DNA from: Gemmatimonadales bacterium
GTDB taxonomy: Bacteria > Gemmatimonadota > Gemmatimonadetes > Gemmatimonadales > GWC2-71-9
Direction: 5' to 3'
Assembly: GCA_044229445.1 (NCBI GenBank)
Contig: JBGASX010000011.1
Location: forward strand, 7,712-71,711
Length of the DNA stretch: 64,000 nucleotides
Positions 11,120 through 56,349 of this stretch are shown piece by piece (the stretch's first letter is position 1; every line of letters starts with the position of its first letter). The notes below the pieces were generated by a model. The model was not told the origin of the DNA. It ran no database searches and saw only the letters and a list, made by a program, of their open reading frames with translations. A program made the translations under genes and the position numbers.

Positions 11120-12310
11120 TTGCATGGGCCGACGCCCAGTCACCGAGGCAACCGCCGTATGACCCTGCACGACACCGGCCGGCGTGGCACCCGACGGCCC
11201 CTTCCCCTGCTCCTTCTCTCCGCCTTTGCGCTCGGCGCTCTCGTCGGCTGCGACGACGTGCCCGCGACTGGCCCCTCCGGCGGCCCGAAGCCGGAGATTC
11301 GCTTCGTGAACCTCGCGATGCCGGTGGATCTCACGCCGAGCGGCGACCTCGCGGCGATCCAGGATGCGGCCTCGGCAACGGGCGATCTCTATTTCTATCA
11401 CACCGCGACCGGCGCGCTCGAGTTCAAGACCAGGGTGGGCGATCCGCTCCGCACCTTCGCGAGCGCTATCTCCGCCACCGGCGCGGTGACCGCGCTCCAC
11501 AACGAGCCGGTGCAGGCGGGCTTCTGGACCGCGGCGAGCGAGTGGACCGACCTCAGCTCGCCCTACCTGAGCGGCTGCGGCGCAGACTACGCTGGCGCCT
11601 GGGATGTGAGCGCGAACGCGCACATCATCGTCGGACTGGTCTGGAACGGATGCAACGCGGAAGCCTTCCGCTGGGATGCGGGCGGCACCGGGATCATCAC
11701 GCCGCTTCAGCTGCTCGGCCAGAGCTATCCCGGCAGCCCGAACCCGCCGGCGAATCGCGCCACCGTGGTCTCCGACGACGGCACCACCGCCGCGGGCTGG
11801 GCGCAGACCAGCCTTGTCGATCGTGCGCCGGCCATCTGGAAGGCGGACGGCACCGGCTTCATGCTCACCGGCTTCACGCCGGATGCGCCGGGCGAAATTC
11901 TCTCCATCAGCGCCGACGGCAAGATGGTGGCCGGCACCTGGGCCGACAGCGCCTTCTACTGGACTGCGGCGACGGGGGTGGTCAACATCGGCAAGCTTCC
12001 TGACAGCGGCGGCTTCACCGGCGGCACCTTCGCCAATGCGATCGCCGCCAACGGCCGGCTCATCTTCGGCACCGACGGCTCTCCCTTCTTTACCCTGCCG
12101 CGCGCCTTCGTCTGGACCCAGGCCAGCGGGATGCAGTCGCTCGACTCGGTCGCCGTGGCCGCCGGCGTCACCATCCCGCAGGGCTACTCGCTCAACCACG
12201 TCCAGGCCGCCTCCGCGGACGGGACGGTCATCCTGGGCACGGCGTACACGCCGACGCTCAATGTGGTGACGTTCGTGCTGACCCTCCCCCTCTCCGCGTA
12301 CGGCTTGTGA
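11120..12310 (+). CDS. lipoprotein with HAF-like extracellular repeats
   Basis: The lipobox is LLLLSAFALGALVGCDD. A repeated unit of about 45 aa recurs (S/A-x-D/N-G-x-x-V/I-x-G ... AF-x-W ... G), for example ANAHIIVGLVWNGCNAEAFRWDAGG, ISADGKMVAGTWADSAFYWTAATG and ANGRLIFGT...RAFVWTQASG. The track start is TTG 11120. ATG 11159 (MTLHDTG...) is more likely. Confidence 0.6.
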   Translation: MHGPTPSHRGNRRMTLHDTGRRGTRRPLPLLLLSAFALGALVGCDDVPATGPSGGPKPEIRFVNLAMPVDLTPSGDLAAIQDAASATGDLYFYHTATGALEFKTRVGDPLRTFASAISATGAVTALHNEPVQAGFWTAASEWTDLSSPYLSGCGADYAGAWDVSANAHIIVGLVWNGCNAEAFRWDAGGTGIITPLQLLGQSYPGSPNPPANRATVVSDDGTTAAGWAQTSLVDRAPAIWKADGTGFMLTGFTPDAPGEILSISADGKMVAGTWADSAFYWTAATGVVNIGKLPDSGGFTGGTFANAIAANGRLIFGTDGSPFFTLPRAFVWTQASGMQSLDSVAVAAGVTIPQGYSLNHVQAASADGTVILGTAYTPTLNVVTFVLTLPLSAYGL

Positions 12311-13782
12311 GGCGGCCCCCCATGACGACCCGCTCCGCCCTGCAGGCCCTGACGCTTCCGCTCTGCCTACTCGCGCTCGCGAGCTGCGGCGACGACGGCT
12401 TCTCCCCCGGCGTCCCGGCAAAGGTCGTGATCGCCGAGAGCGGCTTCAACTTCACCGCCGTCGGGCAGAACCATCTCTTCCCCGCCGCCGCGACCGACGC
12501 GCACGGTCACCTGATCCAGATGTCGTTCATCTGGTCCAGCTCCGATCCGTCCGTCGTCCAGGTGAACGGGGACGGCCTCGCGACCGCGACCGGTCCCGGC
12601 TCCGCGATCGTGACCGTCACCGCCGGTTCGCACAGCGACACCGCCACCGTGAGCGTGCACCAGACCGCGGCCCACATCAGCGCGGTCCAGGGAGATGGCC
12701 AGGGCGGCATCGCCTCGCAGATGCTGCCGGCACCGCTGGTCGTTCAGGTGACCGACGCCCTCAACCGGCCGGTGGGTGGCGTGCTGGTGCACTTCGGGAC
12801 CAGCGACAGCGGCGCCGTCGTCGCGCCCGACACCGCGACCACCGATCGGAACGGCTTCGCCGCGACGACGCTCACCCTCGGCTCCGCGCCCGGCAACTAC
12901 GGCGTCACCGCGACCGTGCCCGGCACGGCGCTCAGCACCAGCTTCACCGCACGCACTTCCGGCCCCTTCAGCATCGACCTGCTGTACGTGAACGGGACGC
13001 CTTCGCCCGCCCAGGCCCAGGCCTTCAACCTGGCACGGCAGCGGTGGGAGTCCATCATCACCGGCGACCTCCCAGACGATTACGCCTCGCTGCCCGCGAA
13101 CAGCTGCGGCGGGAGCCCGGCGATCGACCGGCCGATCGACGACCTGCTGATCTTCGTCACCATCGCCGACATCGACGGGCCCGGCGGCATCCTCGGCCAG
13201 GCCGCCCCCTGCTTCCTGCATTCCGTCGGCGGGCTGCCGGCCATCGGCCAGATGACCTTCGACGTGGCCGACCTCGCCGTCATCGACAGCGCCGGCCTCC
13301 TCTCCGCGGTGGTGACCCACGAGATGGGGCATGTCCTGGGCTACGGCACACTCTGGAGCTCACTCGGTCTCCTCGCCAATCCCTCGAGCCAGGGCGGACT
13401 CGACCCCTCCTTCACCGGGCCGTTCGCCATTGCCGCCTTCGACTCGCTCGGCGGGATCACCCACGTGGGCGCGAAGGTGCCGGTCGAGGACCAGGGCGGT
13501 CCCGGCACCGCCGACAGCCACTGGCGCGAGACCACCTTCGGCAACGAACTGATGACCGGCTACGTGAATCTCGGATTCAATCCGCTGAGCGCGGTGAGCA
13601 TCGCCTCGATGGCGGACCTCGGATATACCGTGGACTACAGCACCGCGGATCCCTACACCATCTTCGCGCCGATCCGCCTGCCCGGCCCCGAGCTGCGCCT
13701 GCATCTCCAGAACGACGTCATCACCGGGCCGATCCGGGTGATGCCGCACCGCCGGAAGTCCGCCGGCTCCACCCGGCACTAG
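12307..13782 (+). CDS. lipoprotein: Ig-like (Big_2, Big_1-like) domains fused to a leishmanolysin-like (M8) zinc metalloprotease
   Basis: The lipobox is LCLLALASCGDD. A Big_2-like segment (FIWSSSDPSVVQVNGDGLATATGPGSAIVTVTAG) and a Big_1-like segment (LVVQVTDALNRPVGGVLVHF...TDRNGFAATTLTLG) follow. The HExxH motif is in VVTHEMGHVLGYG, with downstream ADSHWRETTFGNELMTG. The start overlaps the upstream stop by 4 nt. Confidence 0.75.
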   Translation: MRRPPMTTRSALQALTLPLCLLALASCGDDGFSPGVPAKVVIAESGFNFTAVGQNHLFPAAATDAHGHLIQMSFIWSSSDPSVVQVNGDGLATATGPGSAIVTVTAGSHSDTATVSVHQTAAHISAVQGDGQGGIASQMLPAPLVVQVTDALNRPVGGVLVHFGTSDSGAVVAPDTATTDRNGFAATTLTLGSAPGNYGVTATVPGTALSTSFTARTSGPFSIDLLYVNGTPSPAQAQAFNLARQRWESIITGDLPDDYASLPANSCGGSPAIDRPIDDLLIFVTIADIDGPGGILGQAAPCFLHSVGGLPAIGQMTFDVADLAVIDSAGLLSAVVTHEMGHVLGYGTLWSSLGLLANPSSQGGLDPSFTGPFAIAAFDSLGGITHVGAKVPVEDQGGPGTADSHWRETTFGNELMTGYVNLGFNPLSAVSIASMADLGYTVDYSTADPYTIFAPIRLPGPELRLHLQNDVITGPIRVMPHRRKSAGSTRH

Positions 13783-13791
13783 CGCCGAACC

Positions 13792-14754
13792 ATGCCGGCC
13801 CGCTCCGCGTCGCGCCTGACAAGTACGCTCCGGCACCACGCCGCGGTGCTGGCCTGCCTGCTTGGCGTCTGGACGGGCACGCTCCGGGCGCAGAGCGACA
13901 GCGCAGCGGCCGCGGCCCTCGGGGGTGGCTATGCGGCGCCACCGCCGACCATCGTCTTCATGACCGATTTCGGCACCGCGAATGACGCCGCCGCCATCTG
14001 CCGGGCGGTGATGGTCGGCATCGCGCCGACGGTGCGGATCATGGACATCACCCATCAGGTAACGCCCTACTCCATCGAAGAAGCGGCGCGAAACCTCGAA
14101 TCGGTCACGCCCTACTATCCCGAGGGAACGGTCTTCGTCGTCGTCGTCGATCCCGGCGTCGGCACCGACCGGAAGGCGCTCATCGTGCGCAGTCGCCGAG
14201 GCCAGTACTTCGTGCTGCCTGACAACGGCATCGTGACACCGGTGATCGACCGGGACGGCTTCGATGGCGCGCACGAGATCAGCAATCCGGTCTGGATGAT
14301 CGGCGACCGGATCTCTTCCACTTTCCACGGGCGCGACATCTTCTCGCCGACCGCGGCGTATCTCGCTTCGGGGTGGAACTGGACCGAAGCGGGGCCGGCG
14401 GTCACCGAGCTGGTGCGTCTGAAACCCCGCATCGCCGTGGCCAGCCGGAGCGGCATCGCGGGCGAGGTCATCGCCCTCGACGATCCCTACGGGAACCTCA
14501 TCACCGACATCACCGCGGAGCAGTTCCGCGACCTGGGGTACAGGCTCGGCGATCAGGTCCCCGTGCAGATCGACGCCCGGCGGCTCCGCTTTCCGTTCGT
14601 GAAGACCTTCGGCGATGTCCCGGTAGGGAAGCCGCTCCTCTACCTCGATTCACGCGGTCGCGTGGCGTTTTCGCTCAACGAACGTGACATGGCGAAGGCC
14701 TACGGCATCCATCCACCCGCCCGGGTGACGATTCCGAGGAAGACGCAGCGATAA
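13792..14754 (+). CDS. SAM hydrolase / SAM hydroxide adenosyltransferase family protein (DUF62) with N-terminal signal-like segment
   Basis: Family motifs are present: FMTDFGTANDAAAICRAVM, VVVVDPGVGTDRKALIV, FVLPDNGIVTPVI and STFHGRDIFSPTAAYLASG. The gene lies 9 nt after the upstream stop. Confidence 0.8.
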   Translation: MPARSASRLTSTLRHHAAVLACLLGVWTGTLRAQSDSAAAAALGGGYAAPPPTIVFMTDFGTANDAAAICRAVMVGIAPTVRIMDITHQVTPYSIEEAARNLESVTPYYPEGTVFVVVVDPGVGTDRKALIVRSRRGQYFVLPDNGIVTPVIDRDGFDGAHEISNPVWMIGDRISSTFHGRDIFSPTAAYLASGWNWTEAGPAVTELVRLKPRIAVASRSGIAGEVIALDDPYGNLITDITAEQFRDLGYRLGDQVPVQIDARRLRFPFVKTFGDVPVGKPLLYLDSRGRVAFSLNERDMAKAYGIHPPARVTIPRKTQR

Positions 14755-14991
14755 TCATCCACTGCGACGCTCAACTGCGCCCTTTCGAGACGTAGTCCGT
14801 AGGCACTAGCCCTCCGATCATACCAACGAGCAATACCCCGCCTCTCCGGCTCCCTCTAACATCCATCCTCGATTCGGCCCCTCGGACGCGAGACGTGACG
14901 CGAAAGGGCCCGGATCGTCGGGTGATGGTCGGACACATTGCTGGTGAAGAATCGCGCCGCCCGCATGGGACGCGCCTTCGAAGGAGGCAGC

Positions 14992-15438
14992 ATGACACGA
15001 TTGCAGAGGACGATGGGTGTGCTTGCGGCCTGCGCGCTGGTCGGTACGAGCGCCGCGCAGGCTGAAGGGTTCAAGCCGGGGAGCGACTGCAATCCCTCCG
15101 GCTTCACGACCTGCATGGCGGTGCATCTCAGCGTGCTGAAGGATGGCCTGTCCGTCGGCGAGAGGAATGCGTCGTGGCAGGACTGGGCCGGCGAAGGCCG
15201 CAACACGACGTACAAGTTCGTCCCGGGGGATCACGGCCTCGGCCTGGATCATCCCGGCAACGGGGGCGTGGTACCCGGCGCATGTCCGGTACCCTCCCGC
15301 AATCCGCGTGACTGCGCGTCGGTGGTGACGGTGACGCCCGAGCCGGTCACGATGACCCTGCTGGCCACCGGTCTCCTGAGCATGTCAGGGATGGGGTTCG
15401 TGAGCCGGAGGCGGAAGCAGAAGTTCGAGCAGATGTAA
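14992..15438 (+). CDS. PEP-CTERM sorting-domain secreted protein
   Basis: AAGGAGG lies 5 nt before ATG 14992. The signal peptide is MTRLQRTMGVLAACALVGTSAAQA. The C-terminus VTPEPVTMTLLATGLLSMSGMGFVSRRRKQ shows the PEP motif, a TM segment and a basic tail. The track ORF starts at TTG 14938. Confidence 0.75.
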   Translation: MTRLQRTMGVLAACALVGTSAAQAEGFKPGSDCNPSGFTTCMAVHLSVLKDGLSVGERNASWQDWAGEGRNTTYKFVPGDHGLGLDHPGNGGVVPGACPVPSRNPRDCASVVTVTPEPVTMTLLATGLLSMSGMGFVSRRRKQKFEQM

Positions 15439-15549
15439 CGAAGTGCTGGCCGATGGCGCAGAGGACTTCTCCGAAGCGACCAGGACAGGGGCCGGCGTAC
15501 CAGGCACCTGATTGCCAGTTTCCCCGGCCGTCTTTGAAAGGCGGATTGT

Positions 15550-15669
15550 ATGACCAAGACCCAGAAGGCCACCTGGATGACCCCAACACTCGTCGGCAAG
15601 CAGGTCAGCCAGACTCTCAGTGGCGCGGGCTCCAACTTTGATGCCCGTGGTGGCGAGTTCCACAGCTGA
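15550..15669 (+). CDS. lasso peptide precursor (39 aa), not in ORF track
   Basis: Hand translation from ATG 15550 to TGA 15667-15669 gives MTKTQKATWMTPTLVGKQVSQTLSGAGSNFDARGGEFHS. GAAAGG lies at 15536-15541. It sits directly upstream of the kinase/B1/B2/C/D genes. It has Thr at -2, Asp at core position 8 and a C-terminal Ser. Confidence 0.7.
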   Translation: MTKTQKATWMTPTLVGKQVSQTLSGAGSNFDARGGEFHS

Positions 15670-15682
15670 ATCGCGGCAGACC

Positions 15683-16690
15683 ATGCCAGCGCGATCTGAC
15701 TCGATGCCCTCCGGCGCACCATCGGCCGGGGGGCATCTGGTCTTGAGCCCCGACGCGACCCCGGTGCGTGATTTCTGGGTCTACGGCCTGCGCGTGCGGT
15801 CGGCGATCGACCTCGTCGGCTGGCCGGTCATCGCTGACGCAGAACCCGACGTGATCATCCGGCGCGAGCCGCTGGGGGATGTCCCGCTCGAGGGAGACTC
15901 GTACAGCGCCCGGGCAGTCGTCGAGGATGGCGAGCTCAAGCTCGGCGTGCGTGGTGTCGGCCGCTATGCCGCCTTCGGGGGGTCCCTGATCCGGGTGGAC
16001 GCGGAGCCCGGGGCGAAGCCCGAGGATGTCCGGCTCTACCTCACGGGCGCGCTCATGGGTGTCATCCTCCACCAGCGCGGCACTCTTCCACTCCATGCCA
16101 GTTGCGTGGCGCTGCCGCTGGACGCCGGGTGCGTGGCCTTCGCGGGCCCCTCCGGCGCCGGCAAGTCCACCCTGGTCGCCGAGCTGATCCGTCAGGGGTG
16201 CGGCTTCGTGAGCGACGATCTCTGCGTGATGGCCCCCGCGGCCCGCGGCGAACTCCGCGTCTGGCCCGGCGCCGCGCGGCTCAAGCTCGACGCAACGAGT
16301 CTGGGAAGAACGTCGTGCCGGGGATCGGACCTCGAACCCGCCGGTGGCGGCCGGGGGAAGTTCCACCTCCCCATGGACGCGTCGCTCCACCACACGTCGC
16401 CCGCTCCGCTCCACCGGGTCTACATCCTGACCGACGGAGAGGGGCCACCGCGCGTCGAGCCGCTGGTGGGCCTCGAGGCGATCGCGGCGCTGGTCGACCA
16501 GACCTATCTGCTCTCGAGCGCGCGTGCCATGGGGCTGACGTCGCAGGTCTTCCGTCTGGTCGGCGGCGTTGCCCGCGGGCTGACCGTCAGCCGGCTGATC
16601 CGGCCCCGCGGACTCGGGTTCCTCCCGGCGATGGCCGAGCTGGTCACGCACGCCGCGGAGCGCCCCACCGCAATGCTCCATCCCGCATGA
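15683..16690 (+). CDS. HPr kinase-like serine kinase (lasso precursor kinase type)
   Basis: A P-loop FAGPSGAGKSTLVAELIRQG is followed by FVSDDLCV, as in the HprK C-terminal domain. It is located in the lasso operon. I prefer ATG 15683 because the track start GTG 15620 would overlap the precursor ORF. Confidence 0.75.
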   Translation: MPARSDSMPSGAPSAGGHLVLSPDATPVRDFWVYGLRVRSAIDLVGWPVIADAEPDVIIRREPLGDVPLEGDSYSARAVVEDGELKLGVRGVGRYAAFGGSLIRVDAEPGAKPEDVRLYLTGALMGVILHQRGTLPLHASCVALPLDAGCVAFAGPSGAGKSTLVAELIRQGCGFVSDDLCVMAPAARGELRVWPGAARLKLDATSLGRTSCRGSDLEPAGGGRGKFHLPMDASLHHTSPAPLHRVYILTDGEGPPRVEPLVGLEAIAALVDQTYLLSSARAMGLTSQVFRLVGGVARGLTVSRLIRPRGLGFLPAMAELVTHAAERPTAMLHPA

Positions 16691-16700
16691 GGAGGTTCCG

Positions 16701-17030
16701 ATGAGCACCGAAGCCGAGATCGGTTCGGAGACGCTGGTCACGCGAAACGAGGAGCCGGTCGCGGTCGAAGTGGACCGGACGGTGGTCATGATGAGCGTCG
16801 ACCAGGGCATGTACTTCGGGCTGGAGGGGGTGGGCCCGAAGATCTGGGCGCTGCTCGAACAGCCGCGCTCCGTCAGGCAGCTCTGCGAAGCGCTGATGAG
16901 CGAATTCGACGTGGCGCCCGACGTCTGCCGGCGCGAGGTGGGAGCCTTCCTGGAGGAGCTGCGTCGTGCCCAACTGGTTCGGTTCCATGATCCGGCGACC
17001 ACTCCTGTTCATCCGGCTCCCGCCAGCTGA
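16701..17030 (+). CDS. PqqD-family RiPP recognition element (lasso B1)
   Basis: 109 aa, with AGGAGG just upstream. The PqqD-like pattern ...AVEVDRTVVMMSVDQGMYFGLEGVGPKIWALLEQPRSVRQLCEALMSEFDV... is present. Confidence 0.85.
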   Translation: MSTEAEIGSETLVTRNEEPVAVEVDRTVVMMSVDQGMYFGLEGVGPKIWALLEQPRSVRQLCEALMSEFDVAPDVCRREVGAFLEELRRAQLVRFHDPATTPVHPAPAS

Positions 17031-17418
17031 GCGCACGGCGCTGATCGAATCGCTGGCGCTCTGTACCCTGGCCGGCGTGCTCATCCGCGTCCTCCCCTTC
17101 CGCCGCCTGGCGCCGCGGCTCGGTCGCCACATGGCCGTGAGCCCGGCGGAGCCTGACACCGCCGCCAGGTGGGAGGTCGCCCGCATCCGCTGGGCGATCG
17201 GCGCCGCGGAGCGGCATCTGCCATGGCATCCGGTCTGCCTCCCGCGCGCCATCGCGGCCCACTGGATGCTCCGCCGCCGCGGTATCCCCAGCACGCTCTA
17301 CCTCGGCGCCGACCCGTCGCGCGGCTACGACGCCCACGCCTGGGTCGCGGCCGGCAGCATGATCGTCACCGGCGGACCGCGTGAAGATCGCTTCGCCGTG
17401 GTGGCCTCTTTTGCCTGA
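16966..17418 (+). CDS. lasso leader peptidase B2 (transglutaminase-like cysteine protease)
   Basis: The catalytic Cys context is WHPVCLPRAIAAHWMLRRRGIPSTLYLGA and the His context is YDAHAWV. The size and N-terminus (MIRRPLLFIRLPPAERTALIE...) are typical of B2. An alternative ATG start is at 16987. Confidence 0.8.
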   Translation: MPNWFGSMIRRPLLFIRLPPAERTALIESLALCTLAGVLIRVLPFRRLAPRLGRHMAVSPAEPDTAARWEVARIRWAIGAAERHLPWHPVCLPRAIAAHWMLRRRGIPSTLYLGADPSRGYDAHAWVAAGSMIVTGGPREDRFAVVASFA

Positions 17419-17430
17419 CACCAGCCACCG

Positions 17431-19389
17431 ATGAGCGCCATCTGCGCCCTGTTCCGCTTCGACGGCGCCCCCGTCACCCCGGCGCGTATCGGCAGGCTGC
17501 TCGAGGGGCTCGCCGAGTACGGCACCGATGCCACGAGCTGGGCGCCCGAGCGGATCGAGAGCCCGGTCGCCCTCGGGTGCCGGCCCTGGCACGTCACGCC
17601 GGAGGATGCCTGGTACCGTCCGCCGCTGCTCTCCCGCGATGGATCCTGCGTGCTGGTGGCCGACGCCCGCATCGACAACCGGGTGGAGCTCGGCGCGGCG
17701 CTTGGCATTGCCGCGGCGGAGGCCGCGCATCTCCCCGATGCGGCCTTCATCCTCGCCGCGTACGAGGCGTGGGGAGAGGCCGCGCCGCGACGGCTGGTGG
17801 GTGACTTCGCCTTCGTGCTCTGGGACCAGAAGCGCCGGACGCTCTTTGCCGCGCGGGACGGCGTCGGCATGCGTGTCCTCTTCTACCACCACTCCCCAGG
17901 ACAGCTCGCGCTCGCGACCTCCGCGCATGCGCTGACTCTCCTCCCGGAGATCCGCGCGAAGCTGAACCTGCAGAAGGTGGCCGAGTTCCTCGTGCTGCTG
18001 CCGAGCCAGGAGGGGACGTTCTACGAGGGCATCCTGCGCCTGCCGCCCGGACACACACTGACCGCCACGGTCGATGGGATGCGTCTCGAGCAGTTCTGGT
18101 CCCCGGAGCCGAAGCGGGTGCTCCGGCTCCATTCCGATCGGGAGTACGAAGAGGGTTTTCTGGAGGTCTTCGGTGAGGCGGTACGGGCGCGGCTGCGCTC
18201 GGCGGGTCCGCTCGCAATCATGGCGAGCGGGGGCCTCGACTCCTCCTCCGTCGCGGCCGTCGCGGCGACCCAGCTCCGGGCGGAGGGACGGACACTGCCC
18301 ACCTATCACGCCGCCCCGAGAGCCGGCTTCCAGGGAGCGGTGGCGCGCGGGATGGTCGCCGATGAATCCGGCGACGTCGAAGCGATCGCCCGCCTGCATC
18401 CGAACATCGACCTCCGGATCCGTCGCACCGGCGGTCGCACCCCCTTCGACGACATCGAAACCTCCTTTCTCATGACCGGCTCGCCGCCGCGCAACCCGGT
18501 GAACGTCGCCTGGTTCGACGGCATCTACGCGGCCGCGAGCGAGGAGGGGTTCCGGGTGATGCTCGCGGGACACAAGGGGAATGCGACCATCAGCTACAAC
18601 GGCCTCCGATCGCTGCCGGACGCGGTGCGCCACGGCCACTGGACCCACGCGTGGCACGAGGCCTGTGCACTCGCGCGCGCCACCGGCACGGGGCGCCGGG
18701 ATGTCTTCCGGAACCGGGTCTTCGCCCCTCTCGCACCGCCGATGCTCTCGGCCATGACCCGGCGCCTGGCTGGGGCTCAACCACTGCCGGCCTGGGATTC
18801 CGCGGCCTCGGCGGTCAATGGCGACTTTGCGCGGAGCATCGGGCTCGCCGCTCGGATGCAGACGGCCCGGCGCGATGAATCCAGCGTGGGACGGCTCGGG
18901 GACATCGACTACCGCATCGCGATCCTGCGGGGCGGCGCCGACGTGCTCGACACCTACAGCGGCTTCCGCCCCTGGTTCGGGATCGAAACCCGCGATCCCA
19001 CCGGCGACCAGCGCGTGATCGAATACTGCTTCTCCGTCCCGGGATCGCAGTACCTGCACGACGGCGTCACCCGCTCGCTCGTCCGCCGCGCGATGGCGGG
19101 CAAGCTCCCCGACCAGGTGCGCCACCGCACCACCATCGGTGGCCAGAGTTCGGACTGGGCCGAATGGCTCCCGTCGTTGCGCGCGCTCTTTGCGGCGGAA
19201 CTCGACCTGCTCGAGCGTTCCGAGACCGCGAACCGCTGTCTCGACCTTCCCCGACTCCGCAGCCTGGTCGAGTTCTGGCCGGCCCAGCTCACCAACAGAC
19301 ATCGCAACGACTACCTGCTGCTGCTGCCGCGCGGCATCATGATGGGCCGGTTCATCCGCTGGTTCGAGACGACCTACTCCTCTCTATGA
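17431..19389 (+). CDS. lasso cyclase (asparagine synthetase B-like, C protein)
   Basis: 652 aa with an AsnB-like N-terminus MSAICALFRF. The ATP-pyrophosphatase motif is LAIMASGGLDSSSVAA. Confidence 0.85.
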   Translation: MSAICALFRFDGAPVTPARIGRLLEGLAEYGTDATSWAPERIESPVALGCRPWHVTPEDAWYRPPLLSRDGSCVLVADARIDNRVELGAALGIAAAEAAHLPDAAFILAAYEAWGEAAPRRLVGDFAFVLWDQKRRTLFAARDGVGMRVLFYHHSPGQLALATSAHALTLLPEIRAKLNLQKVAEFLVLLPSQEGTFYEGILRLPPGHTLTATVDGMRLEQFWSPEPKRVLRLHSDREYEEGFLEVFGEAVRARLRSAGPLAIMASGGLDSSSVAAVAATQLRAEGRTLPTYHAAPRAGFQGAVARGMVADESGDVEAIARLHPNIDLRIRRTGGRTPFDDIETSFLMTGSPPRNPVNVAWFDGIYAAASEEGFRVMLAGHKGNATISYNGLRSLPDAVRHGHWTHAWHEACALARATGTGRRDVFRNRVFAPLAPPMLSAMTRRLAGAQPLPAWDSAASAVNGDFARSIGLAARMQTARRDESSVGRLGDIDYRIAILRGGADVLDTYSGFRPWFGIETRDPTGDQRVIEYCFSVPGSQYLHDGVTRSLVRRAMAGKLPDQVRHRTTIGGQSSDWAEWLPSLRALFAAELDLLERSETANRCLDLPRLRSLVEFWPAQLTNRHRNDYLLLLPRGIMMGRFIRWFETTYSSL

Positions 19390-21197
19390 CCAGCGACGAG
19401 CGCAACACCGGCCGGCTGTTCGACCTCAGCCCCCTCCGCCAGGGGCTCGCGCTGGTGTGGCAGAGCGGCCGCGGCTGGACCGCGCTGCAGATCCTGCTGC
19501 TGGTCCTTGCGAGCGTGGTGCCGCTCGTCGCGCTCTACCTCACCAAGGAAGTCATCGACACGGTCGCGCACGCCCTCGGCGGCGGGCCGCGCGATCTCGG
19601 CCGCCTCACCCTCCTGCTGGCGCTGGCCGGCGCCGTCGCCGTCGCCGCCGCGGGGCTCAGACTCCTCTCGGCGCTGGTCACCGAGGTGCAGGGCGCGAAG
19701 CTCAGCGACCGGGTGCAGGAGGTGCTCCACGAGAAGTCGGTGCTGGTCGATCTGGAGTTCTACGAGAACGCCGAGTACCACGACACGATGCATCGCGCCC
19801 AGGCCGAGGCGCCCTATCGCCCGGCCGCGATCGTCGCGTCCTGCGCGCAGGTGATGCAGGGCGGGCTTTCGCTGCTCGCGGTCGTCGGCCTTCTGATCGC
19901 CTTCCACTGGCTCCTGGTCGTGGCCCTCCTCGCCTCGGCGCTGCCGGGGCTCTTCGTGAAGGTCCGGTACTCCAGCCGCCTGTATCGCTGGATGCGGGAG
20001 CAGACGGCGCTGCAGCGGCTGACCCGGTATCTCAACGGCCTGCTCACGTCGATCGAGTCCGCCAAGGAGATCCGCCTCTTCGATCTTGGCGACGAACTGC
20101 GCGGACGCCATCGGGCGCTTCGGCAGAAGAGCATGCACGACAAGCTGCAGCTCGCGCGGCGACGGACCGGCCTCGAGTTAATCGCCCAGCTGATCTCGGT
20201 CACGGCGGTGTTCGGCGCGATGTTCGTGATCGCGCGGCGCGCCCTCGCCGGTGCGGTGACCGTGGGCGACATGGTCATGTACTTCGGCGCCTTCCAGCGC
20301 GCCCAGGACTTCTTCCGCGACCTGCTGGCCGGGCTCGCCGGGCTGTACGAGGACAATCTCTTCCTGACCGACTTCAAGCGGTTCGTGGAGCTCCGGCCGA
20401 CGGTCGTCGACCCGGCGCACCCGCGCGCCTATCCCCGCCCGCTCCGGCGCGGCATCGAGTTCGAGCAGGTGAGCTTCCGGTATCCGGGCACCGAGACCGA
20501 CGTCCTCACCGACGTGAGCTTCACGATCCACCCGGGCGAGCACGTCGCCGTGGTCGGCGAGAACGGCTCCGGCAAGACCACGCTCGTGAAGCTGCTCTGC
20601 CGCCTGTACGACCCGACCCGCGGCATCATCCGGATCGACGGCACCGACCTCCGTGACCTCCGCCTCGCCGATGTGCGCGCGGAGCTCGCCGTCGTCTTCC
20701 AGGACTATGCCCGCTACCAGCTCAGCGCCCGCGACAACATCTGGTTAGGCAACGCGACGCTCCCCGCGGACTCGCCACGCATCGCCGAAGCGGCCTGCCG
20801 GACTGGAGCGGACGCCATCATCCGCGGGCTCCCCCTCGGCTACGACACCGTCCTCTCGCGGCAGTTCGAGCAGGGGACCGACCTGAGTCTCGGCCAGTGG
20901 CAGAAGCTGGCGCTCGCCCGGGCCTTCCTCCGGGACAGCCAGCTCCTCGTGCTGGACGAGCCCACGGCGGCACTCGACCCGAAGGCGGAAGCGGAAGTCT
21001 TCGACCAGTTCCATGAGCTGGCCGAGGGGCGCACCGCCGTCGTGATCAGTCACCGGCTCTCGACAGTGCGGCACGCCGACCGGATCCTGGTCCTCGTGAA
21101 CGGGCAGGTGGCGGAAGCGGGGGCGCACAACGAACTGGTGGAACGCGCCGGCGTCTATGCCCGGCTCTTCGAGACGCAGGCGAGGGCCTACCGATGA
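19386..21197 (+). CDS. ABC exporter, fused TMD-NBD (lasso D protein type)
   Basis: ATG 19386 overlaps the cyclase stop (ATGA). The N-terminal half has six TM segments. Walker A GENGSGKTT, signature LSLGQWQK and Walker B LLVLDEPTAALD are present. The track start 19164 is an in-frame upstream extension inside the cyclase gene. Confidence 0.85.
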   Translation: MTSDERNTGRLFDLSPLRQGLALVWQSGRGWTALQILLLVLASVVPLVALYLTKEVIDTVAHALGGGPRDLGRLTLLLALAGAVAVAAAGLRLLSALVTEVQGAKLSDRVQEVLHEKSVLVDLEFYENAEYHDTMHRAQAEAPYRPAAIVASCAQVMQGGLSLLAVVGLLIAFHWLLVVALLASALPGLFVKVRYSSRLYRWMREQTALQRLTRYLNGLLTSIESAKEIRLFDLGDELRGRHRALRQKSMHDKLQLARRRTGLELIAQLISVTAVFGAMFVIARRALAGAVTVGDMVMYFGAFQRAQDFFRDLLAGLAGLYEDNLFLTDFKRFVELRPTVVDPAHPRAYPRPLRRGIEFEQVSFRYPGTETDVLTDVSFTIHPGEHVAVVGENGSGKTTLVKLLCRLYDPTRGIIRIDGTDLRDLRLADVRAELAVVFQDYARYQLSARDNIWLGNATLPADSPRIAEAACRTGADAIIRGLPLGYDTVLSRQFEQGTDLSLGQWQKLALARAFLRDSQLLVLDEPTAALDPKAEAEVFDQFHELAEGRTAVVISHRLSTVRHADRILVLVNGQVAEAGAHNELVERAGVYARLFETQARAYR

Positions 21198-22453
21198 CCA
21201 GCACGACGTTGGACACTTCGCCCTGCGATGCCGAGGCGCAGCGCGCCTGGCTCGATCTGCTCCGTGACGAGAGTGGCCTCAGCCTGACGCTCAGCGACCA
21301 TCAGTGGGACTGCCTCGCCGACGAAGCCACGCGGCACCACCTGCGCGGGGTGACCTACCGCCGGATGGCCGACAGTCCTTTCGCCGCCCGGGTGCCGGCC
21401 GCCGTCTGGGACCGGTTGCGCTCCTCCTATCTCGAGACCGCGGGACGCAACGCCGTGCTGTTCCGACAGACCAGCCGTATCGTGACCGAGCTCGCGGCAC
21501 GGGGCATTCCGGTGATTCTGCTCAAGGGGATGCATCTCGCGCGGTACGTCTATGCCGACCCCGGGCTCCGCAGCATGGCCGACGTGGACATCATGGTGCG
21601 AACGGAGCATCTGGCCGAAACCGAGCGCGTCTTCCTCGAGCACGGCTTCGGCCCCCTGCCGCGGCCTGGCATCAAGGAGTGGTGTCGCACCAACCATCAC
21701 CTGGCCAAGCTGCGGAAGGATGGCGCACCCGAGGTCGAGGTGCACTGGAACATCCAGCGGCCGACGGGACCCTTCCAGATCGACGTGGAAGGCCTCTGGC
21801 AGCGCTCCGTGCCCGCGATGCTGGACGGAGCGCCGGTTCGGCTGCTCTCGGCCGAGGATCTGCTGCTGCACCTGACCATCCACCTCTCGCACCAGCACCA
21901 CTTCCGGCGCGCGGCGCTCAAGGGGCTGGTGGACATCAGCACGCTGATCTTCGCCGAGGGAAGCAGGCTCGACTGGTCGCTGCTCGCGGCACGGGCGCGC
22001 GCCTGGGGGGCGTCTGGCGTGCTCTTTACCACCCTTCGCCTGACGACCGAGCTGCTGGGCACGCCCGTGCCGGCGGATGTCTTTGCGATGCTGCCGCACG
22101 AGGCGCGTGACGAGGAGATCGTCGGCGTGGCGCGCCGCTACATCCTCACCTTGTATGCCGTGGTGCCGACGGCGTACCAGAAGCTCGCGCACCAGGCTTC
22201 GCCCAGTGAACGCATCAAGCTCCTCGTCTCGGCCCTCTTCCTTCCCAGGGAGCGCATGGAGGAGATCTACGGCCTGCGTGCGGGATCGCCGCTCCTTTAT
22301 CCCTGCTACCTGCTGCGACTCGTCAGCCTCGCCTGGAATCGCGGCGACCTCCTGCGGCAGAGCCTCTTCCGCGGCCCGGCGATTCGGCAGGCGCTCAACC
22401 GGGAACGGGATCTCGAGACCCTCGAGCAGTGGAGCTCCACCTCACCCGGGTAG
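21194..22453 (+). CDS. nucleotidyltransferase family protein (NTP_transf_5-like)
   Basis: The start overlaps the ABC exporter stop (ATGA). The motif region is ILLKGMHLARYVYADPGLRSMADVDIMV. This is the last gene of the lasso operon. Confidence 0.7.
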   Translation: MTSTTLDTSPCDAEAQRAWLDLLRDESGLSLTLSDHQWDCLADEATRHHLRGVTYRRMADSPFAARVPAAVWDRLRSSYLETAGRNAVLFRQTSRIVTELAARGIPVILLKGMHLARYVYADPGLRSMADVDIMVRTEHLAETERVFLEHGFGPLPRPGIKEWCRTNHHLAKLRKDGAPEVEVHWNIQRPTGPFQIDVEGLWQRSVPAMLDGAPVRLLSAEDLLLHLTIHLSHQHHFRRAALKGLVDISTLIFAEGSRLDWSLLAARARAWGASGVLFTTLRLTTELLGTPVPADVFAMLPHEARDEEIVGVARRYILTLYAVVPTAYQKLAHQASPSERIKLLVSALFLPRERMEEIYGLRAGSPLLYPCYLLRLVSLAWNRGDLLRQSLFRGPAIRQALNRERDLETLEQWSSTSPG

Positions 22454-24015
22454 AAACGACGGGCGCCCCCTGCGGTGAAGAGCAGTCCACCCGTCACCGG
22501 CACCGGCACCAGCCGGTTCGTATTGCTGCCATCGCCGAGTTGCCCGCGGGCGTTGTTGCCCCAGCACCAGGCGCTCCCGCCAGACGTCAGACCGCACGTA
22601 TGGCTCTCGCCGGCAGCCAGCTCGCTGAACGACATACCGCCCGCGACTGCCGTGGGCAGGAGCCGGTCGGTCGTGGTGCCGTCTCCCAGCTGTCCGCCGC
22701 CCCCGTATACCGGATCGGCACTATTGCGGCCCCAGCACATCGCCGCACCGGACGTCAGGAGGCCGCAGGTGTGGAAACCGCCGCCCATGAGCGAGGTGAA
22801 GGTCAGCCCGCCCGCGACCGGCACCGGGAGGTTCCGGGACGTGGTCGTGCCATCACCGAGCTGGCCGTACCGGTTGTCGCCCCAGCAGTAGGCCGCACCA
22901 CTCGCCGTGAGGCCGCAGGTCTGCCCGTAGCCGAGCGCCAGCGCCGTGAAGCGGTAGCCGCCTGACACGGCGGTCGGCTGGTACCGGTTGGTGAAGGTGC
23001 CGTCGCCGAGCTGGCCCTCGTTGTTCTGGCCCCAGCAGTACGCCTGACCGCCGCTCACCAGGGCACAGGTCGCATTGGCCCCCGCGAGGATCGTGGTGAA
23101 GCGCAGCCCGCCGATCACCGCGACCGGGGTGTTGCGGTGGATCGTCGTGCCATCGCCGACGACGCCGTTGTCGTTGTTCCCCCAGCACCAGGCCGCGCCT
23201 CCCGCAACCAGCCCGCAGCCGCCCCAGGTACGGGTCTCAAGCAGGATGAACCGATGTTCACCGGCGATCGGCGTCGGCACATGACGGGTATCATTGGTCC
23301 CGTCGCCGAGGTCGCCGAAGCTGTTGAAGCCCCAGCAGTACCCGAGGCCGGTGCCGGTGAGCCCGCAGCTGTGCCAGTAGCCCCCCGACAACGAGACGAA
23401 CGGGAGATTGCCGCTCACCAGCGTCGGCACATTGCGCGGCAGGGTCGTGCCATCGCCGAGATCGCCCGCGGTGTTGTCGCCCCAGCAGTAGGACTGGCCA
23501 TCACTGGAAATGCCGCAGGTCTGAAAGGAACCCGCCGCCAGGAGGGTGCGCGCCGTCGCGGTGGCAGTGAAGGTCGCGAACACCTCCTTGTCGCCGAGCG
23601 CGGTCACCCCGCGCACCTCGAGCGACTGCCGCACGCCGGCGACGGGGCCGAGCGTCCAGTAGTCGCTGGCGCGGCCGAGCCGGTCGGTGAGCGCCGAGCC
23701 GGCGAACACGCTGCCGCCACCGGCGGTGACGCGGAAGTTGACCACGATTCCCGCCAGCGGGACGCCGGCAGGCGAGACCGCCTTCACGGTGAGCGGAATC
23801 GGCAATTCGAGACCGGCCGGACCGGTCTGATGATCCCCACCCAGCACCAGCAGCGTCATTCCCGCGGGATCGACTGGGGCCACCGCAGACTCGGCGCAGG
23901 ATTGCGTGAAGATCCCGAGCGCGGCGAGCGCCAGCAGGCGTCGCGCCGAGCGGAGCGGTGCGTCAAGCGGGTGATAGGCGTGGTGAACGGAGGGCAATGG
24001 CAGGTTGGACCACAT
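22306..24015 (-). CDS. RCC1-repeat lipoprotein with Ig-like domain
   Basis: The signal/lipobox is RRLLALAALGIFTQSCAES. An Ig-like segment (PIPLTVKAVSPAGVPLAGIVVNFRVTAGGG) follows. Many RCC1 blades carry CG(L/I)...G.AYCWG.N..GQLGDGT. I prefer ATG 24015, which has GAAGGGGG upstream; the track start is 24060. The last ~50 codons are Arg-rich and overlap the convergent gene. Confidence 0.8.
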   Translation of the reverse strand: MWSNLPLPSVHHAYHPLDAPLRSARRLLALAALGIFTQSCAESAVAPVDPAGMTLLVLGGDHQTGPAGLELPIPLTVKAVSPAGVPLAGIVVNFRVTAGGGSVFAGSALTDRLGRASDYWTLGPVAGVRQSLEVRGVTALGDKEVFATFTATATARTLLAAGSFQTCGISSDGQSYCWGDNTAGDLGDGTTLPRNVPTLVSGNLPFVSLSGGYWHSCGLTGTGLGYCWGFNSFGDLGDGTNDTRHVPTPIAGEHRFILLETRTWGGCGLVAGGAAWCWGNNDNGVVGDGTTIHRNTPVAVIGGLRFTTILAGANATCALVSGGQAYCWGQNNEGQLGDGTFTNRYQPTAVSGGYRFTALALGYGQTCGLTASGAAYCWGDNRYGQLGDGTTTSRNLPVPVAGGLTFTSLMGGGFHTCGLLTSGAAMCWGRNSADPVYGGGGQLGDGTTTDRLLPTAVAGGMSFSELAAGESHTCGLTSGGSAWCWGNNARGQLGDGSNTNRLVPVPVTGGLLFTAGGARRFYPGEVELHCSRVSRSRSRLSACRIAGPRKRLCRRRSPRFQARLTSRSR

Positions 24016-24146
24016 GGAGACCCCCTTCGCGGCGCGGGTACGTACCCGCCAGGTCGTCATCCCTGTGGGGGCCCCACTGGCACACTGCGGAGTCTCGTCG
24101 CCACCGGGGTGACGTTGAGCGAAGGGTCAACCTTACCGTCGCTGAC

Positions 24147-26240
24147 ATGAAAGTGCCGGGAACGAACGATGAGAGGGTTTGCAGGGTCGCGGTGCGCCGC
24201 GCCCATGCGACCACACATCCTCGATCCACTCTGGCGCAGAGCGGAATTCCGTCCGAGATTCAGTCATCCCCCTCACGGGAGATCCAGCTGGTGGATGCTC
24301 CTTCCCCCCTCTGGTCGGCCCTCACCGACCGGTATCGCCTCGAACGTGAACTGGGCCGCGGTGGCATGGCCACCGTCTACCTCGTGCACGACCTTCGGCA
24401 CGACCGTCAGGTCGCGATCAAGGTCCTGCGCCCGGAGCTGGCCGCCGTCCTCGGCCGCGAGCGATTCCTGGCCGAGATCCAGGTTACCGCGAAGCTCGAC
24501 CACCCCCACATCCTGACGCTGCTCGACTCCGGCGAGGACGGTGGCTTCCTCTGGTATGCGCTGCCGTATGTCCGGGGCGAGTCGCTCCGTGCCCGCCTCG
24601 AGCGCGAGCACCAGCTCGGCGTGAGCGAGGCACTCACCATCGCGGCCGACATCGCCTCCGCGCTCGACTACGCCCACCAGCAGGGTGTCATTCACCGGGA
24701 CGTGAAGCCCGAGAACATCCTGCTGCATGAGGGCGAGGCGATGCTCACCGACTTCGGCATCGCCCTCGCGATCCGCGAGGCCGCGGGCGACCGCCTGACG
24801 GAGACCGGGCTCAGCGTGGGCACGCCCCGCTACATGAGTCCCGAGCAGGCCACCGCCGACCGCCGTCTCGACGCGCGCACCGACATCTACAGCCTCGGCG
24901 CGGTGAGCTACGAGATGCTGGCCGGCGAGCCTCCCTTCACCGGCACCACGGCGCAGGCCATCATCACCCGGGTGATCACTGCCCCGCCTACTCCGCTCCG
25001 CGCGCTCCGCGACAGCGTGCCGGCGGCCGCCGAGGCCGCGATCACCCGCGCGCTCGCCAAGCTGCCGGCGGACCGCTTCCCCTCCGCCGCGGCCTTCGGC
25101 GCCGCCCTCCGTGCCGAGCAACCAGCGCACGTGACGCCGAGAAGCATGTCACCCTGGCTCTGGCTCGCCGCCGCCGGCGCGGTGGTGCTGGTCCTCTACC
25201 TGATGCTTCCGCGCCATGCGACGTCCGCATCGACCGGCGCGGAACGCGCCGCCACGATGGCGCGGGCGCAGCGCGGGCTTGATCGGCGCACCAGTGCGGG
25301 AACGGTCGAGGCCGTCGCCGAGTACGGCGCCGTCATCCGGCGCGACTCGAGCTACGCGCCGGCGTGGAGCGGACTGGGGAAGACGTACGTCCGCGCCTAC
25401 TTCCGGAACTTCACCCTGCCTGGCGTTCCGCACGACAGTCTCCTTGCGCTCGCGGTCCGCTCCGTGGAGCGGGCGCTCGCCGCCGACTCCACCTCTGCCG
25501 ACGCGTGGGTCGCGCAGGCCATGGTCCGCCGCTCCGTCGATCCGACCGACATGACGCCGGCGCTTCGCGCGATCCGTCGCGCGATCAGCCTCGACTCGAT
25601 GTCCGGCGCGGCCTGGCAGACCGCGGCCATGATCTTCGCCGACCGCGGTGACATGTCGGCGGCCATGGAAGCGTGGACGCGCAGTACGACGGTCGCACCG
25701 GCCTATGCCGAGGGGGCGGCGTTCCGGGGACAGGGATATTTCTGGCGGCGTCAGTTCGACAGCGCGGAGGTCTGGGCGGACAGTGCGATCACCCTGGATC
25801 CGGATTACATCTTCGCGCGCACCATTCGCGGATACGTGGCGGTCGAGCGCGGCGACTTCGCGAAGGGCGCAGACGCCTTTGACGCCGCGCGGCGCCTGGG
25901 CGACGACATCGAAATCGTCAACGCCCTCGCCGGCCGGGCCCTCGCCGAGGCGCGCGCCGGCCGGACCAGCGAGGCGCGACAGCTGCTCGGTCGCGCCGAT
26001 TCACTGGGTGCCAGCTACCACCCGACACCGCTGCATACCGCGATCGATATCGCGGAAGCCTACGTCGGACTGCGCGATACCGGCCATGCACTGGCCTGGC
26101 TCACCCGGGTGGAGCAGCCGCACGACCTGCACTTCCAGCTCCATCTGCGCTGTGACGCCCCGCTGGATCCCATCGCCAGCGACCCGCGATTCCGCAGGCT
26201 GCTGCTCACTCCCCGACCGCCCCGAAACGCCGCCTGCTGA
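24147..26240 (+). CDS. Ser/Thr protein kinase with TM segment and C-terminal TPR-like region
   Basis: Kinase motifs are present: GRGGMATVYL, AIKVL, HRDVKPENILL, DFGIA and MSPEQ. The TM segment is WLWLAAAGAVVLVLYLML, followed by TPR-like repeats. The start is uncertain. The first ATG clear of the RCC1 gene is 24147; the track start is 23958. Confidence 0.85.
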   Translation: MKVPGTNDERVCRVAVRRAHATTHPRSTLAQSGIPSEIQSSPSREIQLVDAPSPLWSALTDRYRLERELGRGGMATVYLVHDLRHDRQVAIKVLRPELAAVLGRERFLAEIQVTAKLDHPHILTLLDSGEDGGFLWYALPYVRGESLRARLEREHQLGVSEALTIAADIASALDYAHQQGVIHRDVKPENILLHEGEAMLTDFGIALAIREAAGDRLTETGLSVGTPRYMSPEQATADRRLDARTDIYSLGAVSYEMLAGEPPFTGTTAQAIITRVITAPPTPLRALRDSVPAAAEAAITRALAKLPADRFPSAAAFGAALRAEQPAHVTPRSMSPWLWLAAAGAVVLVLYLMLPRHATSASTGAERAATMARAQRGLDRRTSAGTVEAVAEYGAVIRRDSSYAPAWSGLGKTYVRAYFRNFTLPGVPHDSLLALAVRSVERALAADSTSADAWVAQAMVRRSVDPTDMTPALRAIRRAISLDSMSGAAWQTAAMIFADRGDMSAAMEAWTRSTTVAPAYAEGAAFRGQGYFWRRQFDSAEVWADSAITLDPDYIFARTIRGYVAVERGDFAKGADAFDAARRLGDDIEIVNALAGRALAEARAGRTSEARQLLGRADSLGASYHPTPLHTAIDIAEAYVGLRDTGHALAWLTRVEQPHDLHFQLHLRCDAPLDPIASDPRFRRLLLTPRPPRNAAC

Positions 26241-52845: not shown

Positions 52846-53160
52846 TTCGTGTGTCGGACCTCGCCACAAATCCTCGCGCAACATCAATTCGTGACCCTGA
52901 CGCACTCGTTCGCGCACCAAGCGGGACGATTCGGGGAGCGCGCGGCGCATCGAGACAGCAAGAAGCGCGCATTTCCTGCCTGCGTGCGCAACTCGCTGAC
53001 CACTAAAGACTTTTCGTGGACCGATGCATTCGATTCGTGATCGCGTGAGCACCGTTCGCGACCCGGGCACGAGCATTCGCGACCCGGAGAGGATCATTCG
53101 CAGCGTGGAGACGAGCATTCGTGATTCGCACCAGAACGTTCGGACCCCGACGCTCGCATT
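52846..53160. repeat. degenerate 21-bp-periodic tandem array (core TTCGYGACCC)
   Basis: TTCG cores lie at 53013, 53034, 53055, 53076, 53097, 53118 and 53139, exactly 21 bp apart. Further cores lie at 52846, 52888, 52909 and 52930, in multiples of 21, offset by one nt from the first set. No convincing ORF crosses the region. Confidence 0.75.
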
Positions 53161-53343
53161 TATGCATTCGTCGTCCGTGTTATGCATTTTTGCCGCGCCT
53201 CACACAATGAATTGTTCGCGCACCCCGCTCTGGCACACCCGTTGCTTCTCCCCCCTCCGGCCGTGTGGTGGTTGAGACACCCGCGGACCATTGCCGAAGG
53301 AACCTGTGCACTCGCCGTCTCAACCGGCGGTGTCATACGCCCG

Positions 53344-54054: not shown

Positions 54055-54117
54055 GCAGGGTGGTGCAGTAGGCGCGATTTGCTGATCGCGCGCATGACAA
54101 TGCATGGCGAAGTACCG

Positions 54118-54155
54118 AACGGCAGCCGACCCGGGGGAGTGGGGCGGCTGCCGTT
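54118..54155 (+). terminator. hairpin with short T-run
   Basis: AACGGCAGCCG (54118-54128), a 16-nt loop, CGGCTGCCGTT (54145-54155), then TGG. It lies 64 nt after stop 54054. Confidence 0.45.
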
Positions 54156-54259
54156 TGGCTCTCCCGGCTCCGGGCCCGTCCCGGGGGGGGCGCCGGGAAA
54201 GCAGACCGGGGCCGAGACCTAGCAGAGTCCGGCGCTTGGTCGTATCGTATTGGCGTGCT

Positions 54260-54287
54260 TTGACGTTGTGGTCAAATGAGTTAGAAT
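54260..54287 (+). promoter_or_regulatory. sigma70-like promoter candidate (TTGACG - 16 nt - TAGAAT)
   Basis: TTGACG lies at 54260-54265 and TAGAAT at 54282-54287. It sits in an AT-rich stretch 40 nt upstream of ATG 54327. Confidence 0.45.
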
Positions 54288-54326
54288 CAATTCGGTATTT
54301 ATTCGGTTTCCAGCTGAGGCCTCTCC

Positions 54327-55974: not shown

Positions 55975-56349
55975 TGCGCGAGCCTTTTTGCATGTGTCTC
56001 GTTCGCCCTGCGCATCGCTAGGTCAGGGGACTCTCAACGATCGACCAACTCGAGTGTAGCGTTTGGAGAGTGGAACTGAAAGAGTCAATATCCGCGGCGC
56101 CCTACGTTGCCTAGCGCTGATCCACGAGCCGCCGAGCTCCCACAGATGCCTCACAAACTTACTCCGGCTCCCCGAAAGCGCCGGCCTCATCCGCGATCAT
56201 TCGGAGATAAGTAGATGCATACGGCGCGATCTCCTTCAACGCTGTGAGCTTTTCCATCCATTGCCCCAGAACAACCCCCTGGTCGCCGACGGCGACCGCC
56301 TCCAGCCTGCATGGCCCCTGGCGCGGCAGACGTTGGATGGTACGTGGCG

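Follow-up and report, generated by a model that had tools for sequence, protein, structure and literature searches.

A probable seven-gene operon for a paeninodin/pseudomycoidin-like lasso peptide in a Gemmatimonadota genome

The locus described here raises the question of whether a Gemmatimonadota genome carries an intact pathway for a tailored lasso peptide and, if so, where on the peptide its tailoring enzymes would act. It lies on the + strand at positions 15550-22453 of the window, that is, the whole 64,000-nucleotide stretch that was analyzed (Gemmatimonadales bacterium, assembly GCA_044229445.1, contig JBGASX010000011.1, positions 7,712 to 71,711), to which all coordinates below refer unless another locus is named. 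An open reading frame (ORF) listing gives seven ORFs on the same strand in the order A-K-B1-B2-C-D-N. Their gene content, domains, catalytic motifs and predicted folds, together with the conservation of the operon and of the C-terminal Ser of the precursor, make it likely that they constitute an intact, functional and self-contained operon whose product is a class II lasso peptide resembling paeninodin and pseudomycoidin. The genes are tightly coupled: an AGGAGG ribosome-binding site at 16690-16695 ends 5 nucleotides ahead of the B1 ATG (16701) and overlaps the K stop codon by its final base; the B1 and B2 reading frames share 65 nucleotides (44 if B2 starts at the alternative ATG at 16987), an overlap that is kept in related loci; and base-by-base reading places ATGA overlaps between C and D at 19386-19389 and between D and N at 21194-21197. 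The co-directional arrangement, the coordinates, these elements and the SGGLDS motif of C had been given in the initial annotation, and all are correct on reading the sequence. Folding of 15655-15720 gave no attenuator hairpin between A and K (z-score -0.24).

Gene A (15550-15669) is an ORF for a 39-residue precursor, MTKTQKATWMTPTLVGKQVSQTLSGAGSNFDARGGEFHS, with homologs in related loci. The predicted leader comprises residues 1-23 (nucleotides 15550-15618), with a W9xxP12xL14 motif and Thr22 at position -2, and the predicted core comprises residues 24-39 (SGAGSNFDARGGEFHS; nucleotides 15619-15666), with Asp8 as the putative ring acceptor and Ser16 at the C terminus. The core starts with SGAGSNFD, preceded by Thr22-Leu23, and Asp8 falls in the position 7-9 range that is required of lasso precursors. 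No second precursor gene was found in the window by a six-frame motif scan. A genome scan with one genome per species, in which gene content was established by tblastn with the seven window proteins, returned 16 related loci, all in metagenome-assembled genomes (MAGs) of Gemmatimonadota, Gemmatimonadaceae or Longimicrobiales groups. In 15 of the 16, homologous precursor genes lie upstream of K, and the complete precursors number 17. The family shares the leader W-x-x-P-x-[LVM]-V-x-K-[PQS]-[VL]-x-[EQ]-T-[LAFR], placing W, P and L at -15, -12 and -10, and the long-form core x-G-x-G-x-x-x-D-[AGS]-x-G-G-E-...-S. Thr(-2) is invariant, the acceptor Asp sits at core position 8 in the long cores (position 9 in locus L018), and a Ser ends the window precursor (Ser39) and every one of the 17 complete homologs. 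Thr(-2), Asp8 and an invariant C-terminal Ser are among the points that support the complete kinase-plus-nucleotidyltransferase lasso cluster that had been proposed for this locus.

The precursor family reaches beyond Gemmatimonadota. In Paenibacillus cellulosilyticus, whose cluster has the order N-C-A-K-B1-B2-D, the precursor consists of the leader MSKKNWQAPVVEALEISETM followed by AGAGTKYID...TIS, with W(-15)/P(-12)/T(-2) spacing and an xGxG core start identical to those of the window family; the cores of paeninodin (AGPGTSTPD...) and pseudomycoidin (AGPGKRLVD...) likewise start with xGxG. The shared leader spacing and core start support cleavage after Leu23, a 16-residue core and a Ser1-Asp8 ring, as well as homology of the precursor family across phyla. 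The predicted product is thus SGAGSNFDARGGEFHS with a Ser1-Asp8 ring and a phosphorylated Ser16; an additional, N-dependent group on it is uncertain. Calculated neutral monoisotopic masses of the Ser1-Asp8 form are 1576.665 Da without modification, 1656.632 Da (+P), 1736.598 Da (+2P), 1818.685 Da (+P+Hex), 1980.737 Da (+P+2Hex) and 1985.684 Da (+P+AMP), as against 1489.633 Da for an unmodified Gly1-Asp7 form. The same precursor peptide is encoded in the public MAG locus L004, where the A gene (9847-9966) differs by 1 synonymous nucleotide of 117. It should be noted that the synonymous sites of A are unusually conserved in this comparison, with a synonymous divergence (dS) of 0.04 as against 0.15-0.35 in neighboring genes (0.33-0.35 in K and C), for which RNA-level constraint and recent exchange are possible causes; in L004 and L005, the closest relatives, the conservation extends to about 45 nucleotides upstream of the A start.

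Gene K (15704-16690) encodes a 328-residue HPr-kinase/phosphoenolpyruvate carboxykinase (PEPCK)-like P-loop protein. Its ORF is open from 15620, and ATG 15704 is the likely start, as the homologs are 328 residues long with the N terminus MPSGAP. In an alignment of 28 K homologs, His131, S150-G-x-G-K-S155 and Asp171-Asp172 are invariant, the P-loop (G148-S155) lying at nucleotides 16145-16168; mutagenesis has shown the importance of this H...GxxGxGKS...(15)...DD set in BsfK and in earlier lasso kinases (PMC10368454, PMC9266682). A profile built from the Gemmatimonadota K alignment matches the experimentally validated BsfK (taken as the translation of the gene printed in PMC10368454) with 55.7 bits, the similarity being limited to 71 to ∼110 residues around the P-loop. 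K is 28% identical over 292 residues to the kinase gene of the P. cellulosilyticus lasso cluster and 37% identical over ∼290-296 residues to a homolog beside lasso genes on a Thalassobaculum plasmid, and is thus closer to alphaproteobacterial homologs than to the Paenibacillus kinase; in a phylogeny, it would be expected to fall with the alphaproteobacterial, SyanK-like enzymes. A sequence search against the PDB gave generic P-loop matches only. The AlphaFold model of K (predicted local distance difference test score, pLDDT, 89.5) is matched by Foldseek to PEP carboxykinases over its full length; its matches to the HprK/P structures 3tqf, 1kkl and 2qmh (probability 1.0) span the catalytic domain. 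Because motif, BsfK profile match, Paenibacillus and Thalassobaculum identities and fold agree, the assignment of K as an HPr-kinase-like lasso kinase stands; activity on the precursor is a prediction from sequence and model. Since K is nearer to the alphaproteobacterial homologs, polyphosphorylation of the product is plausible by analogy with SyanK of Sphingobium, which can attach as many as four phosphates (PMC9266682). The K family is very large, with 6,863 representatives at 50% identity (E <= 1e-30); cluster look-up names its distant relatives only as "hypothetical protein," and PF27840 is listed for K homologs in precomputed annotation.

The Thalassobaculum locus (L020:6381-16290; Thalassobaculum sp. 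OXR-137 plasmid NZ_CP139716.1), which holds the closest K homolog in a cultured organism, is a larger lasso-like cluster with two kinase paralogs, two PqqD genes, a sulfotransferase, a B2, a cyclase and a nearby GalE. Its candidate precursor (8992-9219), which ends in ...IENTLGPSTFSSGQAAHVS, lacks an acidic residue at core positions 7-9.

The remaining processing genes were assigned with Pfam and NCBIfam models. B1 (16701-17030; 109 residues), a PqqD-like leader-recognition protein of the RiPP recognition element (RRE) type (RiPP, a peptide made by the ribosome and then post-translationally modified), matches PF05402 with 66.2 bits against a cutoff of 23.4 (E = 3e-18). B2 (16966-17418; 150 residues), a transglutaminase-like leader peptidase, matches PF13471 (Transglut_core3) with 86.6 bits against a cutoff of 26 (E = 1.5e-24) and the lasso B2 model NF033537 with 93.6 bits against a cutoff of 33, and its Cys/His region aligns to BsfB2. 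C (17431-19389; 652 residues), an asparagine-synthetase-like lasso macrolactam cyclase, matches PF00733 with 89 bits against a cutoff of 21, carries a GATase_7 domain (PF13537) and the SGGLDS ATP-binding motif, and has the lasso cyclase model NF033535 as its best NCBIfam match. D (19386-21197; 603 residues) is an ATP-binding cassette (ABC) exporter in which a transmembrane domain (ABC_membrane, PF00664) is joined to a nucleotide-binding domain (ABC_tran, PF00005). A threaded lariat topology is predicted for the product.

N (21194-22453; 419 residues) is a nucleotidyltransferase-fold protein that matches PF14907 (NTP_transf_5) with 194.7 bits against a cutoff of 31.2, and with this match all that was proposed at the outset for B1, B2, C, D and N has Pfam or NCBIfam support. 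K111-G112, R126, D130-x-D132 (the DxD motif, nucleotides 21581-21589) and E182-x-H184 are invariant in 30 N homologs. The structural model (pLDDT 90.9) has a nucleotidyltransferase core, for which the best PDB matches by Foldseek are a fungal nucleotidyltransferase-like protein, ANT(2'')-Ia (several entries, including 5cfs and 4xje), LnuA and TM1012; for the large C-terminal helical part, no structural match was found. The ANT(2'')-Ia structures 5cfs and 4xje are the templates reported by Zyubko et al. for PsmN, the nucleotidyltransferase homolog of the pseudomycoidin cluster, and a PsmN D134A/D136A mutant loses the +162 Da modification (PMC6993621).

The whole unit recurs among Gemmatimonadota. 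The order A-K-B1-B2-C-D-N is found in 11 of the 16 loci (L004-L007, L009, L012-L015, L017 and L018), a recurrence that, judged on gene content, is far beyond chance; contig ends truncate L011 and L016. All named K and N homologs are labeled Gemmatimonadota, Gemmatimonadaceae or Longimicrobiales, except for one N homolog, from one source, labeled Anaerolineae. The closest relative, L004 (a Gemmatimonadales MAG, JBGATI010000011.1), has the same precursor; its DNA is ∼91% identical over the shared region, and its enzymes are 92-98% identical to those of the window. Ratios of nonsynonymous to synonymous divergence (dN/dS) against L004 are 0.05-0.17 for K, B1, C, D and N, and the cluster is thus under purifying selection; K has diverged to ∼45% identity among genomes that keep the operon. 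Flanking genes are common to the window and L004 only, and against L005-L007 nucleotide similarity begins within ∼45 nucleotides of the A start and ends in N, so the seven genes are the unit.

How these genes might act together can be proposed by homology; each chemical step is a prediction, as are the size of the ring, the lasso topology and the residue that is phosphorylated. The PqqD-like B1 would bind the 39-residue precursor via its WxxPxL...T(-2) leader, and K would phosphorylate the linear precursor, assisted by B1, ahead of leader removal and cyclization (an order taken from PMC8498205 and PMC10368454). B1 and B2 would then cleave after Leu23, and C would adenylate Asp8 and close the Ser1-Asp8 isopeptide ring around the tail to give the 16-residue lasso SGAGSNFDARGGEFHS. 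N would add a group to the phosphate (by analogy with PsmN, one or two hexoses), and D would export the product.

Several points weigh against this reading and have to be set beside the evidence for it. Four of the Pfam models that the initial annotation had named for the enzymes (PF05402, PF13471, PF00733 and PF14907) score above cutoff, but the fifth, PF07475, reaches only 19.9 bits on K against a cutoff of 33.3; the HprK-related A/B models of NCBIfam also stay below cutoff on K at ∼30 bits (TIGR04355, 31.8 bits) and cover the P-loop region only. The HPr-kinase-like nature of K, weak by Pfam, draws its support from the motif, the BsfK profile, the Paenibacillus identity and the fold. Likewise, B1 scores 72.3 bits on the lasso PqqD-chaperone model NF033536 against a cutoff of 80, and C scores 379 bits on NF033535, below its strict cutoff of 525. 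Neither a promoter nor a terminator is recognizable at 15000-23000, where a scan for sigma-70-like promoters, whose coverage does not extend to Gemmatimonadota promoter types, gave 0 promoter-like sites and 1 terminator-like site, with no excess over shuffled sequence. Gly2 is invariant in the long cores, and a Gly1-Asp7 ring, with Thr at -3 and a 15-residue product, may be formed instead. Finally, the Bradymonas sediminis bsf cluster, the sole studied cluster with the same seven gene types, phosphorylates its precursor at Ser3 and has yielded no mature lasso peptide (PMC10368454), and for PsmN, nucleotidylation followed by the action of a host glycosyltransferase was not excluded by the authors (PMC6993621, PMC9266682).

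This last point leads to the alternative that survives best, namely that N is a true nucleotidyltransferase, which would AMPylate or UMPylate the phosphoserine or the peptide, or make an activated donor; sugar would then not be added by N itself, and the decoration would differ from the hexoses of pseudomycoidin. The Pol-beta/ANT(2'')-type fold with its G...DxD...E metal-binding set speaks for it, as does the conserved seven-gene unit, which holds neither a glycosyltransferase nor a sugar-nucleotide gene. Set against this is the only experimental observation in the family, the PsmN-dependent addition of +162/+324 Da on the phosphate, seen by mass spectrometry in vivo in Escherichia coli (PMC6993621); the window data do not discriminate between donors. 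We regard this alternative as somewhat doubtful, yet as one to be taken seriously. The sugar-adding role suggested by the initial annotation is unsettled even for pseudomycoidin (PMC6993621), and a role of N here as a phosphate-decorating enzyme, which rests on analogy, is uncertain.

A second alternative concerns the site of phosphorylation, which cannot be assumed from the presence of a kinase because BsfK modifies Ser3. In the same lasso cluster, K could act on an internal Ser of the core, for which Ser1 and Ser5 are available, and the C-terminal Ser would then do something else, such as being modified by N. Core positions 1 and 5 are, however, variable in the homologs (S/N/Q/V/A and S/A/R/G, respectively) and not kept as Ser/Thr, whereas the C-terminal Ser is the sole hydroxyl residue of the core that is invariant in the window precursor and the 17 homologs, and for that reason it is the likely phosphate acceptor. 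Moreover, K resembles the Paenibacillus kinase over 292 residues and the Thalassobaculum homolog over 296, but BsfK over 71 only, and BsfA, unlike the precursors of the window family, ends in Asp. Phosphorylation of an internal Ser is thus improbable, and phosphorylation probably falls on Ser16 of the core, as in paeninodin, ThcoA/SyanA and pseudomycoidin (PMC8498205, PMC9266682, PMC6993621). The phosphorylated C-terminal Ser of the initial annotation stands as far as the invariance of that residue goes, with the site itself a conclusion from conservation. That the cluster is a silent or decaying relic without a product, as might be suggested by the silence of the related bsf cluster in all hosts tried (PMC10368454) and the lack of a sigma-70-like promoter in the scanned interval, is highly improbable given seven intact ORFs with coupled starts, the low dN/dS against a ∼91%-identical relative, the maintenance of the operon across genomes in which K is at ∼45% identity and a promoter scan that is blind to Gemmatimonadota promoter types.

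With an intact lasso operon as the preferred reading of the locus, some of the related loci raise the possibility that parts of the pathway occur apart from lasso formation. N is kept in all 14 loci whose contig extends past the cyclase (past B2 in L008). In L008:9862-13049 (CAYUYF010000008.1, a Gemmatimonadaceae MAG), the genes are A-K-B1-B2-N, and the 10 kb on each side contain neither C nor D; the core, TQGNPGGEIGS, has only 11 residues and ends in Ser, and the next gene downstream encodes a short-chain dehydrogenase. To judge by its genes, this locus may represent a version of the lasso pathway that lacks the cyclase. A second precursor in L007 (9341-9442) has the core TQSPISQIGS, without an acidic residue, and L010, which has no D, carries two precursors (9515-9601 and 9707-9793) with the 8-residue cores FVQDDVLS and FVQDAEQS. 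These short extra precursors have the same leader and the Ser end; because they lack Asp/Glu at core position 7-9, a canonical lasso ring is impossible for them. It is conceivable, if unlikely, that in Gemmatimonadota the K+N pair acting on the invariant C-terminal Ser forms the conserved core of the pathway and that the lasso fold is dispensable. If so, there would exist a peptide family, short, linear and leader-cleaved, with a C-terminal phospho-(X)-serine, derived from the lasso pathway and carrying N chemistry of a biochemically undefined kind, and the window cluster would be the lasso-forming member of this wider family.

The genes around the operon (12307-15438 and 22306-26240) encode a leishmanolysin-like protease with immunoglobulin-like domains, an S-adenosylmethionine hydroxide adenosyltransferase, a 166-residue ORF (without a Pfam match, its C terminus resembling PEP-CTERM by eye), an RCC1-repeat protein and a tetratricopeptide-repeat Ser/Thr kinase. 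They were considered as members of the cluster and rejected, being conserved beside it only in L004. Elsewhere in the window, positions 53000-58000 form an island of low G+C content (0.51-0.64 versus ∼0.70 elsewhere), probably left by a mobile element or prophage. Its genes include one for a DUF5131 protein (phage Gp37/Gp68-like; 54327-55079), and several of its ORFs have no Pfam match. Neither Rfam models nor a tRNA search gave a match anywhere in the window.

As to novelty, the window cluster is a well-formed member of a described cluster type, with a core sequence unlike the characterized ones, and not a new type of system; its identification is what standard RiPP genome mining would be expected to yield. 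A published count gives 29 Gemmatimonadota MAGs with lasso clusters (PMC11316326), and in the literature we found no characterized or described Gemmatimonadota lasso peptide, only such counts in genome-mining papers (PMC11316326). Public collections already contain the exact sequences of the precursor, K and N, without names. The description of the product as uncharacterized is right in that its precursor has been neither named nor characterized, with the proviso that a public MAG (L004) already encodes the identical 39-residue peptide. The find would extend kinase/nucleotidyltransferase-tailored lasso peptides to Gemmatimonadota, which are abundant in soil and sediment and hardly cultured. 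A compact 16-residue core with 17 natural variants would provide a convenient system in which to ask what the PF14907 protein N does to phosphoserine, and whether a bulky C-terminal phospho-adduct helps to lock the lasso.

Among known systems, all seven gene types also occur in the B. sediminis bsf cluster (bsfA, K, B1, B2, C, D, N), whose host is likewise Gram-negative and non-Firmicutes; related clusters are mentioned in Acidobacteriaceae and Sphingomonadales (PMC10368454). The initial statement that both characterized cases come from Firmicutes was therefore incomplete, also because SyanK, a proteobacterial enzyme, polyphosphorylates a C-terminal Ser (PMC9266682, PMC8498205). BsfA has Ile(-2), YxxPxL at -17 to -12, an Asp end and phospho-Ser3, whereas the window precursor combines Thr(-2) with a WxxPxL motif at -15 to -10 and ends in the invariant Ser. 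For other split-B systems, the motif is quoted as Y(-17)xxP(-14)xL(-12) (PMC10368454), so that the window motif lies two residues nearer to the cleavage site.

Paeninodin (the pade cluster of Paenibacillus dendritiformis) and the ThcoK/SyanK systems, in which lasso peptides are phosphorylated on the C-terminal Ser, share with the window the split B1/B2, C, D and an HPr-kinase-like K with the His/P-loop/Asp-Asp motif (PMC9266682), as well as the Ser end of the precursor and the xGxG core start (AGPG... in paeninodin); the paeninodin-like P. cellulosilyticus precursor shares the W(-15)xxP(-12)...T(-2) leader. The window differs from these paeninodin-type systems in its Gemmatimonadota host, in gene order (A-K-B1-B2-C-D-N versus N-C-A-K-B1-B2-D in the Paenibacillus locus L021), in the length of the core (16 versus 23 residues in paeninodin) and the predicted ring (8 residues, closed at Asp8, versus 9) and in having an N gene, which the pade cluster lacks (PMC6993621). 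Pseudomycoidin (the psm cluster of Bacillus pseudomycoides) has a core unrelated to that of the window save for xGxG and the terminal Ser, and its N gene lies between B2 and D rather than after D at the end of the operon. The two clusters nevertheless have in common a K, a PF14907-type N and the C-terminal Ser, and their N proteins share ANT(2'')-Ia relatives and carry the DxD motif at nearly the same position, D130/D132 in the window and D134/D136 in PsmN (PMC6993621).

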